A DNA stretch of 64,000 nucleotides from an uncultured virus (IMG/VR IMGVR_UViG_3300037067_009972). Taxonomy: Duplodnaviria; Heunggongvirae; Uroviricota; Caudoviricetes. The stretch lies in the IMG/VR virus record IMGVR_UViG_3300037067_009972. One strand, written 5' to 3'. The notes under the pieces were generated by a model, which was not told the DNA's origin, made no database searches, and worked only from the letters and a program-made list of their open reading frames with translations. Positions 40,051-64,000 of the stretch are shown one piece after another. Position numbers and translations under genes: made by a program. Numbering within the stretch: the stretch's first letter is position 1; each line of letters starts with the position of its first letter.

Positions 40051-40377
40051 GTGGGTATCTTCAAGTTTATGGCAAAAATAAAAGACACCCTACTATTAAT
40101 ACCAGACGAAGAATTACGTGGATGGATTGAAGCGTTTTTAGTTCGAAATTATGGCGAATACTCGCTACAAAATGACGTAGAAACCTGGTACAATGAGCTG
40201 GGGTTAGTTTTACACAAACAACCGTTTTCTGCAGTAAGCACTGGTAAAGGTGGTCTTACAATTCAGGCAGTAACGTCCTATGTAGCTTACGACGATTTCC
40301 AGGGAACGTCAAAATACTTAATATGCTTGTATGGATTAATCTGTAAATTAACTCAAATAGTACTTGACACTAAGTAA
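40051..40377 (+). CDS. hypothetical protein
   Basis: 108-aa ORF. Confidence 0.45.
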   Translation: MGIFKFMAKIKDTLLLIPDEELRGWIEAFLVRNYGEYSLQNDVETWYNELGLVLHKQPFSAVSTGKGGLTIQAVTSYVAYDDFQGTSKYLICLYGLICKLTQIVLDTK

Positions 40378-40392
40378 AATTTTTCGTATATT
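40364..40392 (+). promoter_or_regulatory. strong sigma70 promoter TTGACA-N17-TATATT heading the tRNA array
   Basis: Perfect -35 and 17-nt spacer about 170 nt upstream of the first tRNA. Confidence 0.7.
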
Positions 40393-40566
40393 ATAAACAT
40401 GCAACTCTTAGAACATACATATCGTCCATTTAATAATAAAGGCATTGATACCCAAGTCAGACTTAGCCCTATGGGATGTTTATGTTCACTATCGCTTTGG
40501 TCTCCCGTAGGGCAATAAATACTATCCAAGCTGTTTTCACGTTTTAACTATTTAATGTATCAACTT

Positions 40567-40640
40567 GTCGCTATCTTCTAATAGGTTTAGGAAATCGGTT
40601 TCTCAAATCGATAACATCAGTTCGATCCTGATTAGCGGCA
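40567..40640 (+). tRNA. tRNA-Glu(CTC)
   Basis: Cloverleaf; anticodon arm TCGGT-TTCTCAA-ATCGA; no CCA. Confidence 0.85.
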
Positions 40641-40644
40641 CAAA

Positions 40645-40878
40645 ATGGAACGATACGAAATACAACAACAGGGGTTTCCGACAAAATTTTATAATGTGCG
40701 GAAAAATGATTATGATTATGGATATATTGATATAGCGACAGGTAAAGATGTAATTCGCTATAGCGATAAACTGCATGATCGGGAAGTGTCTGTACGAAAT
40801 ATGTTAGTTATTGGGTATAAATCAGTACCACTATACTTAACATTTAGATTTGAATTACAAGAGAACTCATCGCACTAA
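40645..40878 (+). CDS. hypothetical protein (3' end overlaps RNase P-like RNA)
   Basis: 77-aa ORF. Confidence 0.4.
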   Translation: MERYEIQQQGFPTKFYNVRKNDYDYGYIDIATGKDVIRYSDKLHDREVSVRNMLVIGYKSVPLYLTFRFELQENSSH

Positions 40879-41102
40879 GCGGAGACGCAAGTGAGGAACT
40901 TCAGCTCACATAAAGGAACGGGTAGGAGAGTCACATACAGCGCTGGGTTGTTAACCCGAGAATGCTGACTCGCTTGTACTACTTAGCATGTGTGCAACGC
41001 AAACAGTCTTAGGTCGGCACGTTTCTTGGCCAATGATAGACGGGTAGCGGCCAACAGAGAAATGATGAGATAAAACAAAAAGCTGGGTAAGCTCAGTGAT
41101 TA
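40845..41102 (+). ncRNA. rnpB: RNase P RNA-like ribozyme, minimal (no P18, reduced S-domain)
   Basis: CR-I GAGGAACTTCAG, CR-IV AGAGAAATGA, CR-V ACAAAAAGCTGGGTAA; P2, P3, P4 (bulged U), P5, P6 pseudoknot and P15-17 all pair. Confidence 0.85.
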
Positions 41103-41107
41103 CTAAT

Positions 41108-41180
41108 AGCGCTATCATCTAATTGATTAGGATATCGGCCTTTCACGTCGACAACGTCGGTTTAATCCCGACTAGCGCTA
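41108..41180 (+). tRNA. tRNA-Glu(TTC)
   Basis: Cloverleaf; TCGGC-CTTTCAC-GTCGA. Confidence 0.85.
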
Positions 41181-41249
41181 CTAACATGAAGAAAAATAAT
41201 TTGTTGTTTAAGTAAATTGTGAAGAAGATTAAAAGAGGAAAAAGAATAA

Positions 41250-61260: not shown

Positions 61261-61282
61261 TAGACTAGAAAGGGCATGAAAC

Positions 61283-61570
61283 ATGTTACAAGTAATAAAT
61301 TGTTCGCAATGTCACTGTGGTGGAATGTTACCGGTTAAACTTGAAACCGTTGTAAAGTGTATACAATGCGATTCATGCGGCAATCTGGACTCCGAAAAAT
61401 GGAGCTGGCATTTTTGCTCTTTAAAATGTTTATATGAATGGCAAAAAACAAATGATGGGATGCTTCCTTGTGCGGCGTGTCATCAAACAGGATGGGATTT
61501 TGGTTTTCAAGAAAACGGAGTTTGTACAACTTGCGGTGGAGTTAAATATATAACTGAGGTACAAAAATAA
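61283..61570 (+). CDS. zinc-finger protein
   Basis: Multiple CxxC, FCSLKC, CAACHQTG. Confidence 0.6.
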   Translation: MLQVINCSQCHCGGMLPVKLETVVKCIQCDSCGNLDSEKWSWHFCSLKCLYEWQKTNDGMLPCAACHQTGWDFGFQENGVCTTCGGVKYITEVQK

Positions 61571-62182
61571 TTGAATATAATTAAACAATCAATGCAACTA
61601 GAATATATTACTCCAGATGCATTGCAAGTATTAGAACGAGCAGGACGTACCTGCTACAAATCAGAAGACCGTATAACAGCAGGTTCTGCGGTAAAGTTTA
61701 TTGAGAAAATAAAAGAGATGGAACATGAATCAGTGATGGAACATGCTTACGCATCGTTTAGGATGATCACCGATCGTGGTGTAACACATGAAGTTGTACG
61801 TCATAGACTCGCTTCATACTCACAAGAAAGCACACGCTATTGTAACTATGGCAAAGACAAGTTTGGTAACGAAATAACGGTAATCGAGCCAGTATGGTTT
61901 TATAATATGCAGTTTGCAGATGACGCATACCTTGAATGGGCCGAAGCATGTCAATATGCAGAGAAAAAATATTTTCGTTTATTAGAATTGAAGCAATCCC
62001 CCCAACAAGCACGTGCAGTATTACCAAACTCACTAAAAACCGAAATTGTAATGACTGCTAACTTTCGTGAATGGCGCCATTTCTTCAAACTGAGAACATC
62101 CGAAAAAGCACACCCACAGATGCGAGAGCTTGCATTACAGGGTCTCACACAAATGCATAAAGAAGTACCGGAATTGTTTTAA
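61571..62182 (+). CDS. thyX: FAD-dependent thymidylate synthase
   Basis: HESVMEH, RHRLASYSQESTRY, NFREWRHFFKLR, AHPQMR; TTG start. Confidence 0.95.
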   Translation: MNIIKQSMQLEYITPDALQVLERAGRTCYKSEDRITAGSAVKFIEKIKEMEHESVMEHAYASFRMITDRGVTHEVVRHRLASYSQESTRYCNYGKDKFGNEITVIEPVWFYNMQFADDAYLEWAEACQYAEKKYFRLLELKQSPQQARAVLPNSLKTEIVMTANFREWRHFFKLRTSEKAHPQMRELALQGLTQMHKEVPELF

Positions 62183-62407
62183 CATGATCACACACTTAGC
62201 AACCTTTAATAAATCGATAGCCTGCAGGGCAAAAAATCCTAATTATGGCGGACAACCCGAATCAGCTAAAGTAATAGCTTTACGATTAGTTAATGAAGGT
62301 GAAATGCTTGCTAATATGGACACATATACTCAAGTACTTGTTGTATTCCCAAGTTCAAGTCATTGGCTTGATTTAAATACTGTTAAACTCCAGCCTTAGC
62401 TGGAATT

Positions 62408-62491
62408 GCATGAATGGCGTAATGGCAGCCGCGTAGGCTTGAGAAGTCTATGGGTGAAAGTCCCGTGAGGGTTCGAGTCCCTCTTCGTGCA
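62408..62491 (+). tRNA. tRNA-Leu(GAG)
   Basis: TAGGC-TTGAGAA-GTCTA; long variable arm. Confidence 0.87.
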
Positions 62492-62521
62492 CTAATCTGA
62501 AACTTATTTATAGGAGATACT

Positions 62522-63043
62522 ATGGAATATATTAAATATAGCCGCAGAATTGGCTGGTTTTTAAAAGAACAACTTGAGTATGGAGAGTTAATATTTGCAA
62601 ATAATTTACCACTTGAAGAGATAACAACAGAAATTCTCAATTTAGACATCATACCAATACGTATAATTAACCCGCATCCTTGGGATGCTTTACAAAAAAT
62701 TGGAGTAACGCAAGAGTTTTTAGGAACTATCATTAATGCAGCTAAATATGAATGTCCTTGGACAGAAAACAAATACATAGGAACGTTACCTATAGCTATA
62801 GCAACTTTCAACAAAAAGAAATATCCTATGTTAAATGAATATCAACTAGATACCGACTGGCATAGAACTATGGATAAAGATGAACGGTTTGTTCCCGACG
62901 CCGTAGAAAAATCTTTGCTTGGTCATGGATATACATTTGCTACATTGCCAAGTGACGGTGTGCGCACATTAACATTAGCTGCACTTAAAATGCCAAACGA
63001 GGACTATCTTATTTGCTTAACGTACATATGGCACAACAAATAA
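62522..63043 (+). CDS. hypothetical protein
   Basis: 173 aa with AGGAG SD. Confidence 0.55.
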   Translation: MEYIKYSRRIGWFLKEQLEYGELIFANNLPLEEITTEILNLDIIPIRIINPHPWDALQKIGVTQEFLGTIINAAKYECPWTENKYIGTLPIAIATFNKKKYPMLNEYQLDTDWHRTMDKDERFVPDAVEKSLLGHGYTFATLPSDGVRTLTLAALKMPNEDYLICLTYIWHNK

Positions 63044-63498
63044 CAAAAGTCCTTGTAATCATAGACATGCAACCAGAGTTTTGCTATGCGGCTAAATCAA
63101 TTATTCCACAAGTTGTTAAGGCGATTGAAAAAGCTAAGAAGGAACAAAAAGAGATTTTATTAATCGAATATGCATACAAAGACTCATCTCACACTCGCAC
63201 ATACCGGGAAATTTTACAGACTGTATCCACCTATAAAAATAAAAAAGTAGTTTACAAATACAGCGATGACGGCTCAAAAGAAATAATGCAAATATTAGAA
63301 AAGCGCAAAGTTATTATAGATGTTTGCGGAGTTAATCTGGGGGCTTGTGTGCGTTCAACGGTGAAAGGTTTATTACGTAATACAAACATACAAAGAATAA
63401 ATATTCTTAAAAAAGCTGTCAACGACGAATGGGGTGTAACCTCAGAGTTACGTTGGTTTAAATACCCAAAACGAAAAAATCTAAAAATTGTGGAGTAA
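63028..63498 (+). CDS. isochorismatase/nicotinamidase-family cysteine hydrolase
   Basis: VIIDMQPEF (Asp), VVYK (Lys), CGVNLGACV (Cys). Confidence 0.75.
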   Translation: MAQQITKVLVIIDMQPEFCYAAKSIIPQVVKAIEKAKKEQKEILLIEYAYKDSSHTRTYREILQTVSTYKNKKVVYKYSDDGSKEIMQILEKRKVIIDVCGVNLGACVRSTVKGLLRNTNIQRINILKKAVNDEWGVTSELRWFKYPKRKNLKIVE

Positions 63499-63500
63499 TT

Positions 63501-64000
63501 ATGTTAAAAATATTTCAAGTAGGTGGAAGCGTTCGAGACATGATTCTCGATACAAAATCAAAAGATATCGATTATGCAGTAGAAGCGAGTTCATGGGAAG
63601 AAATGCGTGAATATATTAATTCCAAAGGAAAAATCTTTTTAGAAACCCCACAGTATTTAACCATCCGTGCACATGTCGATAATCTAGGAGACGCGGATTT
63701 TGTATTATGCAGAAAAGACGGTAATTACTCCGACGGGAGACGCCCTGATTCAGTAGAGATCGGAACGCTCGAAGATGATCTCGCCCGTCGAGATTTTACG
63801 ATGAATGCGATTGCAATCGATATGAGTAATGGGTTAGTTATCGATCCTTACGATGGACGTAAAGATATCGAAGCTAAAGTAATTAGATGTGTAGGAAACC
63901 CATATGATCGTTTCAATGAAGACGCCCTACGTATGTTACGCGCAATACGCTTTGCTATTACAAAAAATATGGCTCTAGATATTCTAGTTGAAAATGCTTT
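63501..64000 (+). CDS. cca: CCA-adding tRNA nucleotidyltransferase (5' part, truncated by the window edge; not in ORF track)
   Basis: Hand translation: VGGSVRDMILDTKSKDIDY, RKDG, DLARRDFTMNA, DPYDGRKDI, RFNEDALRMLRAIRF. Confidence 0.9.
   Translation, partial: MLKIFQVGGSVRDMILDTKSKDIDYAVEASSWEEMREYINSKGKIFLETPQYLTIRAHVDNLGDADFVLCRKDGNYSDGRRPDSVEIGTLEDDLARRDFTMNAIAIDMSNGLVIDPYDGRKDIEAKVIRCVGNPYDRFNEDALRMLRAIRFAITKNMALDILVENA

Follow-up and report, generated by a model that had tools for sequence, protein, structure and literature searches.

We analysed the first 64,000 nucleotides (the window) of a 132,155-bp contig from an uncultured phage of the Caudoviricetes (IMGVR_UViG_3300037067_009972). 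The window carries an array of tRNA genes and, within it, a compact RNase P-like RNA. We consider it probable (roughly 0.65) that this RNA, together with a short CCA-adding enzyme, matures the 5' and 3' ends of the phage tRNAs with help from the host, and that a nearby element, first taken for a permuted tRNA, is a YrlA-like tRNA mimic that does not await ligation. Taken together, these parts represent a variation on phage tRNA support that is already known, and what surprises is the compact RNase P RNA. Features are collected in Table 1.

The contig has an estimated completeness of 61% and its genes include those for a terminase, a capsid protein and a tail sheath. Two relatives were used for comparison: G002 (215 kb, 100% complete) and G004 (a 26-kb fragment). 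For G002, 106 of 247 open reading frames (ORFs) of at least 90 aa have a match on the contig. The contig corresponds to G002 61-195 kb and, save for one small gene, the remainder of G002 has no counterpart on it. Pfam scans covered 181 predicted contig proteins (most ORFs of at least 55 aa, with short opposite-strand overlaps excluded) and 132 of the 140 G002 proteins that lack a match on the contig.

Table 1. Features of the window, with strand and the evidence used for each.
Feature	Position	Strand	Evidence
Compact RNase P-like RNA, 249 nt	40855..41103	+	Helices, two relatives, family covariation
tRNA array, 29 genes in the window	40567..62492	all +	ARAGORN, Rfam, sequence reading
Short class II CCA-adding enzyme, 231 aa	63501..64196 of the contig	+	Pfam, alignment to solved enzymes
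CCA-enzyme paralogue, dead nucleotidyltransferase head and HD domain	28240..29307	+	Pfam, motif check
YrlA-like Y RNA candidate	54083..54219	+	Structural detector, relatives, Rfam, comparison with PMC4201824
tRNA-Asn(GTT); 18 nt (42444-42461) inserted between positions 32 and 33	42412..42503	+	
Metallo-beta-lactamase-fold hydrolase	30455..31204	+	Pfam, RNase Z models
Calcineurin-like metallophosphoesterase, adjoining NADAR	46259..46876	+	Pfam; 64% identical in G002
cREC receiver-like domain	55865..56188	+	Pfam; 54% identical in G002
RF1-like release factor of reduced length, interrupted by a conserved +1 frameshift site (CTT-TGA, 43609-43615)	43501..44167	+	

The compact RNase P-like RNA

The RNase P-like RNA (hereafter P RNA) sits between the two tRNA-Glu genes of the array, and its 3' end falls a few bases before tRNA-Glu(TTC). 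Helices P1, P2, P3, P4, P5, P6, P7, P15, P16 and P17 can be drawn. P2 pairs 40866-71 with 41064-69, and the L15 GGU is at 41043-45. P4, which is located between GAGGA and ACARAA elements, pairs 40898-906 with 41081-88; U40901 is bulged and all 8 of the 8 pairs form. The bulged U, and pairing of GGU with RCCA, are named features of RNase P RNA (PMC11143913). The specificity domain is reduced to P7 and one variable hairpin; neither a full P8-P14 nor CR-II/III was found. G002 and G004 each carry the RNA in the corresponding position, and P2, P5, P6, P15, P16 and P17 show compensatory changes.

Contigs from sequencing runs were compared over 40300-50000, a range that lies outside the YrlA-like element. 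In runs X1-X3, contigs of another organism of higher abundance match the P RNA (40903-41046) with substitutions and insertions, and one continues into tRNA-like sequence. This organism is probably a further related phage.

We scanned viral contigs for the 3' motif of the P RNA and obtained 119 loci, from 41 of 64 parts. An upstream P4 strand forming 7-8 of 8 pairs is present at 93 of these loci, which give 81 distinct sequences. A rough regular expression detected no CR-II/III-like motif in 69 of the 81, our non-canonical set, and 59 of the 69 are compact. The two P4 strands of each RNA pair at 8 of 8 positions in 67 of the 69. Conversely, swapped strands do so in 412 of 4692 cases. The non-canonical RNAs also keep company with tRNAs: at least 5 are nearby for 32 of the 52 copies with context, compared with 1 of 9 host-type copies, and 16 of the 52 end no more than 60 nt from a tRNA.

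The window RNA and 45 of the 59 compact copies were then aligned (46 sequences). Of all cells in the drawn helices, 89.8% pair, compared with 34-44% in slid controls, and changes on both sides occur at 34 of 48 pairs; in this alignment P3, P6 and P17 are partly misaligned. For P4 the alignment gives 99.7% pairing and 6 pairs with double changes, a figure favoured by our selection on P4. P3 pairs in the window and both relatives, and is 50% paired across the family, where its alignment is poor. Our first P15 assignment was superseded by this alignment. The compact copies keep the bulged U, the P4 register, a J5/15-like motif (54/59) and the GGU (57/59).

Certain compact members of the family are visible to the bacterial class A model, reaching 71-146 bits against RF00010; two compact copies score about 71 bits. 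When 20 short loci were submitted to Rfam, 5 passed RF00010 (3 full-length and 2 shorter) and 15 failed. An earlier two-ended pattern, too permissive and with a gap that was not long enough, was dropped. Of its matches, 1 of 3 viral and 24 of 27 metagenome ones were due to chance, and it missed the G004 copy.

Prokaryotic genomes were searched with a pattern that matches the window RNA and 37 of the 69 phage RNAs, giving 120 loci from 35 of 64 parts. P4 is present at 93 of these; 90 of the 93 are full length, and 92 of the 93 have the canonical AAG. Only 3 prokaryote copies are compact. One lies on a contig of 546 kb that also has a terminase, and one is in a bin that has a separate full-length rnpB. 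A previous prokaryote pattern returned 0 loci and matched 0 of the 69 known positives, so that zero carries no meaning.

Among cultured phages, Stenotrophomonas phage vB_SmaS-DLP_6 has an unannotated compact copy just before tRNA-Arg(CCG) (L269 2303-2548; KU682439.2, about 105,775-106,020). Curated huge-phage genomes gave partial matches. We found no description of a phage RNase P RNA family in the literature, consulted mostly as titles and abstracts; the supplements of huge-phage surveys (e.g. PMC7162821) may bear on this. The text of P finder mentions neither phage nor virus.

Several points weigh against an active RNase P RNA. Rfam (RF00010) gives no match to the window RNA or the G004 copy at E up to 10, and the window RNA taken alone folds no better than shuffled sequence (minimum free energy, z -0.24). 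The window P4 has C and U at two positions where 92 of the 93 cellular matches have A and G. Most of the specificity domain is gone, and the sole viral precedent that we found in print, the camelpox RNase P-like RNA, is inactive (PMC3001073). Nevertheless, structure and covariation bear out the RNase P-like RNA of the original prediction, despite the missing Rfam match.

The same losses raise the idea that the RNA is a weak or dead derivative, a decoy or competitor that binds host RnpA or tRNA precursors. The depleted specificity domain, the non-canonical P4 letters and the camelpox RNA, which lacks processing activity, would fit, as would the absence of a phage RnpA. Furthermore, since host RNase P processes T4 pre-tRNAs (PMC11143913), a phage P RNA is not strictly needed. 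The elements that the compact copies retain (bulged U, P4 register, J5/15-like motif and GGU) argue the other way, and we think a dead or decoy RNA unlikely. We prefer a P RNA that contributes to tRNA maturation.

With bacterial class A RNase P RNA (rnpB/M1, RF00010) the window RNA shares the P1-P7 and P15-P17 layout, the 8-bp P4 with a bulged U in register, the P6 pseudoknot and the L15 GGU. It differs in being phage-encoded and 249 nt long, and in having no P18, altered P4 letters, a reduced specificity domain, no Rfam match and no phage-encoded RnpA. The S-domain has been mostly lost in archaeal type T RNase P RNA (Thermoproteaceae) and in the reduced P RNAs of the candidate phyla radiation as well (PMC7191817, PMC8172020). 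Those are the cells' own genes, whereas the window RNA is viral, keeps the bacterial P6, P16, P17 and GGU, and is found in a tRNA array.

Encoded 3' ends and the CCA-adding enzyme

ARAGORN called 25 tRNA genes in the window. The addition of tRNA-Asn, Glu(TTC) at 41108, Trp(CCA) at 54225 and Ser(TGA) at 60437 brings the number to 29; the last has a weak Rfam match and its anticodon was taken from the sequence. Twenty-nine conventional tRNAs plus one permuted tRNA had been predicted. The count of 29 stands, as 28 conventional genes plus the odd tRNA-Asn, and the permuted element falls away as a tRNA (see below). The array extends beyond the window as far as about 76.4 kb on the contig, where it includes more tRNAs, a tRNA with an amber anticodon and a tmRNA.

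Across the whole contig, C74 is encoded in 32 of 32 ARAGORN calls, and T is at position -1 in 26. CCA is encoded in just 1 of the 32, Pro(TGG), as originally noted for this gene. In G002, 36 of 37 tRNAs encode C74 and none encodes CCA; at the G004 locus, C74 is encoded in 19 of 19 and CCA in 2. Thus, the tRNA genes end one letter into CCA.

The protein encoded from 63501 aligns to solved CCA enzymes (E 6e-29). It has the GGSVRD, DxD, flexible loop, RRD and EDALR motifs, and has no body/tail or HD domain. DxD, the flexible loop, RRD and the EDxxR template are motifs of class II CCA-adding enzymes. The best models are CCA enzymes, all below their cut-offs, and homologues of about 230 aa are numerous. 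The claim of a CCA-enzyme gene with intact catalytic motifs is hence upheld, for a protein of 231 aa. On the basis of these motifs, the enzyme likely adds CCA-end letters to the phage tRNAs.

The HD-domain paralogue far upstream of the array is present, as had been reported. Its nucleotidyltransferase motifs (DxD, RRD and EDxxR) are lost, the HD domain is kept, and the protein is 69-70% identical in G002. By analogy, it is possible that this is a 3'-end healing phosphodiesterase, a role that we presume from that of long CCA enzymes.

We propose the following order of events. The plus-strand array would be transcribed as polycistronic precursors. Host nucleases would trim the 3' ends to C74, the letter that the genes are observed to encode, and the 231-aa enzyme, judged by its motifs, would add C75 and A76. 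The phage P RNA, with a fold taken from covariation, would cut the leaders together with host RnpA, L15 GGU pairing with the new RCCA end. Host RnpA is invoked because none of 28 records of phages with a P RNA contains an RnpA gene.

Several further observations concern the array. The contig has no tRNA-Ala. Beyond the window are the tmRNA (L001 5383-5748), a Met(CAT) tRNA whose variable arm is long and which has a 1:72 mismatch (L001 5820-5909), a CAT tRNA whose anticodon loop is irregular (L001 2111-2188), and the amber-anticodon tRNA (L001 6697-6772), which is also found in G002; the genome reads well in code 11. Between tRNA-Pro(CGG) and tRNA-Arg(TCT), 45106-45252 is a structured stretch with multiple stems (z -2.98) and no Rfam match. 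An ARAGORN scan for short introns was discarded, as it forced introns into ordinary tRNAs.

The YrlA-like RNA and the interrupted tRNA-Asn

Within the YrlA-like element, a terminal helix with a GNCG-AG motif (54088-94) is followed by the 3' half of a tRNA (54115-54149), a 6-nt loop, the 5' half (54156-54188) and the closing helix. A structural detector found the permuted geometry (54115-54188) once on the 132-kb contig and not at all in 3.03 Mb of shuffled sequence. The detector missed both G004 elements, which were found by eye, so its zero counts elsewhere are lower bounds. The flanks form a long helix (z -4.33), and conservation is higher in them than in the tRNA body. One such element is at the corresponding site in G002, and G004 has two tandem copies. 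Thus, the permuted geometry that had been predicted is there, beyond chance. A tRNA that must be rejoined is not what it points to: no anticodon is kept and the architecture is that of a Y RNA.

Joining would give CAA or AAA as the anticodon in the window, against UCA or CAG for the G004 orthologue, so none is common in either frame. In the G004 paralogue, the anticodon stem is lost. A reading as tRNA-Phe(AAA), based on two genomes, fell with the third. No bulge-helix-bulge was found, the junction being an 11-by-6 internal loop, and six-frame searches of this contig, G002 and G004 found no EndA (PF01974).

YrlA RNAs have paired ends with a GNCGAAG-type motif, then a T arm, a closed acceptor stem and a D arm (PMC4201824). 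The order in the window element (5' stem, T arm, closed acceptor stem, D arm, 3' stem) is the same, and its best Rfam match is YrlA (RF02553). The G002 copy matches the GNCGAAN0-1G motif exactly, the window copy and G004 copy B each deviate from it at one position, and G004 copy A is divergent. YrlA has been reported from 22 phages, and the copy of M. smegmatis is cut by RNase P and CCA-tailed (PMC4201824). On this sequence evidence, the element is likely a Y-RNA-type tRNA mimic that needs no splicing.

Other results speak against assignment to YrlA. At 19.3 and 20.9 bits, the scores fall well short of the cut-off of 69, and the element was not picked up when the whole record was searched for YrlA. 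In the window copy, one letter departs from the Ro-binding motif, and C74 is not encoded. A YrlA RNA would be expected within about 4 kb of a Ro60 gene on the same strand. Here, the G002 Ro60 gene (21.8-23.6 kb) is about 100 kb from the element (124 kb), and Ro60 was found neither on the contig nor on the G004 fragment. Compared with YrlA (PMC4201824), the element also keeps a 5-bp anticodon stem. We regard it as alike in working and as separate from the family in two respects, proximity to Ro60 and the RF02553 score. The YrlA-like RNA would bind Ro60 via its terminal helix, and its acceptor hairpin may be opened by RNase P and CCA-tailed, in the manner of M. smegmatis YrlA, to give a two-piece mimic.

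A pattern built on the 5' motif found only G004, and blastn against cultured phages gave T-arm matches only. Another permuted tRNA-like element is on the minus strand of L209 (6805-6876); this phage is unrelated and rich in tRNAs, and a compact P RNA is likewise present in it. We found no paper on permuted tRNAs in phages in a literature consulted mostly as titles and abstracts.

The original prediction placed tRNA-Asn beside the permuted element as a gene whose product must be cut and rejoined. The insertion is real in the DNA: an independent assembly, 99.97% identical, has it, and another study yielded a contig that spans it without differences. The independent assembly adds one change, which breaks an anticodon-stem pair. 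Both G002 and G004 have an ordinary gene with no insertion, and the claim is not supported. The insertion is likely strain-specific damage and not an intron. Damage is the simplest reading of this gene, the only tRNA-Asn of the contig, and splicing is possible. The bases after the Asn anticodon stem (CCCAGAAA, 42443-42450) are those that follow the stem of G004 Y-like RNA B (L045 12793-12800), by chance or shared origin. Directly after tRNA-Asn, both relatives have an odd tRNA-like gene with CAA in the loop and an extended 5' part (L008 2470-2548; L138 3880-3960), which is not at that site in the window.

Could both genes still give decoding tRNAs, but only after cutting and ligation of the anticodon loop by phage or host enzymes? 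The clean permuted geometry and paired flanks are compatible with this. Moreover, both genes allow a reading in which the junction falls at 32/33, the start of the Asn insertion resembles the trailer of the G004 element, RNA ligases are present in G002, and the contig has no other tRNA-Asn. Yet the anticodon of the permuted element differs between orthologues, and the paralogue lacks the stem that would carry it; the junction has no bulge-helix-bulge and the three genomes have no EndA. Permuted tRNAs of algae and Thermofilum likewise have the 3' half upstream of the 5' half and paired flanks, but the window element lacks their bulge-helix-bulge motif, EndA and conserved anticodon; the 2014 review lists such tRNAs from algae and archaea, spliced at a bulge-helix-bulge (Soma 2014, PMC3978253). 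The Asn insertion is missing from both relatives, and the near-identical assembly has the stem-breaking change. Hence, we judge tRNAs conditional on a nuclease and ligase step, as originally proposed, to be very improbable, and retain a likely mimic and a gene that is probably damaged.

Repair genes, neighbouring genes and meaning

The window had been said to lack an RNA ligase and a splicing endonuclease. This extends to the whole, 61%-complete contig: Pfam scans of its 181 proteins found no RNA ligase, PNKP, RtcB, EndA or RnpA, and six-frame searches agree for RtcB and EndA. The ligase gene at 59173 was rejected as an RNA ligase, since all models assign it to ATP-dependent DNA ligases. A search for RtcB, Rnl1/Pnk and EndA beyond the window, proposed at the outset, thus found none on the contig; in the complete relative it found Rnl1 and PNKP, and EndA was absent from G002 and G004. 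The G002 region absent from the contig carries, at 7-24 kb, genes for Rnl1, PNKP, RlaP, a DRB0094-type ligase and Ro60, with the repair kit at 7-19 kb. These ligase genes are about 90 kb from the G002 tRNA array, which itself contains a short ligase domain. Anticodon-loop repair after attack by a host nuclease would be the task of a separate T4-type kit (Rnl1, PNKP, RlaP), probably encoded in the missing ~83 kb of the phage.

We next consider which parts occur together in the 28 records of P RNA phages (10 near complete; 7 with longer RNAs). A CCA-enzyme head was found in 15 of the 28 (8 of the 10 near complete), Rnl1 in 9 (6 of the 10) and TROVE in 6 (5 of the 10). RtcB was found in 5 of 14 (4 of the 10 near complete), and 9 of the 10 have Rnl1 or RtcB; these ligase counts have no size-matched control, which counts against their use as support. 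Two of the 10 near-complete phages have no CCA enzyme, and many P RNA phages encode full CCA ends. The pairing of P RNA and CCA enzyme is therefore not obligatory. The P RNA motif, allowing at most one mismatch, was found in none of 35 related records (30 chosen by CCA-enzyme kinship and 5 by a marker protein), a motif that misses RNAs with inserts. Together with the partial co-occurrence, this indicates that the parts form a mix-and-match kit, of the sort described for jumbo phages (PMC7824862, section 3.4.9; PMC7162821). Co-occurrence in relatives thus holds for the P RNA, the CCA enzyme and C74-only ends in G002, and does not extend to a fixed module, the motif being found in 0 of the 30 CCA-enzyme kin.

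The RNA repair kits of T4-type and jumbo phages (Rnl1, PNKP, RlaP, CCA enzyme, cREC, ROT/TROVE; Iyer et al. 2021, PMC7824862) comprise the same families, with large tRNA sets, and G002 has nearly the full list. The differences are that RNase P RNA has 0 occurrences in the main text of PMC7824862, and that the ligase genes here are unlinked from the array and were not found on the contig. The original claim that the phage encodes most steps of tRNA maturation and healing therefore survives in part: there is an RNA for 5' ends, a CCA enzyme for 3' ends beside tRNA genes without CCA, and a heal-and-seal kit in G002. A self-contained system is not supported, given the 28 records without RnpA, no evidence of RNase Z and the distance of the G002 ligases from the array.

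RNase Z models match the metallo-beta-lactamase-fold hydrolase at the metal motif only (residues 18-63), and a full-length RNase Z match was not obtained. The gene is in a recombination block with an exonuclease, a Sak4-like protein and a single-stranded DNA-binding protein. It was left out of our tRNA model for these two reasons, and its role is probably outside tRNA processing. Thus, the hydrolase that had been listed upstream is present, and no tie to tRNA was found.

The metallophosphoesterase and the cyclic-phosphate-processing receiver (cREC) were confirmed as Pfam families. Genes for NADAR (45804), NAPRTase (51115), a nicotinamidase-like protein (63013) and NadD (contig 64166) are in the array and make up an NAD+ salvage route, to which G002 adds NAD synthase and PARP. 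cREC was defined from NAD-processing neighbourhoods (PMC7824862). A role for cREC in processing RNA ends or NAD/ADP-ribose is proposed only, and cREC and the phosphoesterase could equally well serve the surrounding NAD-salvage genes.

These genes lend some weight to the view that no tRNA system exists. The array would then be an accretion site of unrelated accessory genes, with cREC and the phosphoesterase in NAD+/ADP-ribose counter-defence. The gene content between tRNAs differs from one relative to another, and none of the 35 kin records has the P RNA motif, which is consistent with accretion. Conversely, G002 retains P RNA, CCA enzyme and C74-only ends, and the G004 fragment retains the first and last of these. 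The CCA-enzyme match in 8 of 10 near-complete P RNA phages, and the 16 of 52 non-canonical P RNAs that end close to a tRNA, also speak against it. As an account of the whole array we find accretion doubtful. We accept it for the hydrolase, cREC and phosphoesterase genes, and not for the P RNA and CCA enzyme, for which we keep the maturation role.

A short release factor gene, which would support translation and was not among the parts originally listed, is also in the array. Its product has PxT and GGQ motifs and no domain 1, and a +1 shift gives 221 aa with a prfA match (E 3e-50). The frameshift site GGACTTTGA is kept in G002 and G004 and resembles that of the RF2 autoregulatory frameshift. 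Elsewhere, a LAGLIDADG gene (window 32677-33357) interrupts the Sak4-like gene, and the DNA polymerase gene has a group I intron signal with an HNH gene (L002 235-317). G002 encodes a major-vault-protein-like protein (L143 10847-13324) and a reverse transcriptase (L143 7024-8037), and about 6 kb (L142 12640-18865) is free of ORFs of at least 90 aa.

Phage tRNA sets, CCA enzymes and RNA ligases were already known, and RNase P RNA has been regarded as a cellular gene. We tentatively suggest, at rather less than even odds, that large phages may run their own line of tRNA end maturation. It would be built on an active mini RNase P ribozyme, invisible to Rfam and without the elbow-reading domain, joined in this clade by a minimal enzyme that completes CA on the products of C74-ended genes, and by Y-RNA mimics that the ribozyme itself opens into two-piece decoys for Ro60 and anticodon nucleases. 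In phage arrays 'permuted tRNAs' can be Y-RNA-type mimics, and mistaking one for the other is likely to recur. If active, the P RNAs would be natural minimal ribozymes with rewired P4 letters, which probe what catalysis needs. They would also explain how phage tRNA production continues when host processing is shut down or overloaded. The copy in the cultured phage DLP_6 makes this testable now.

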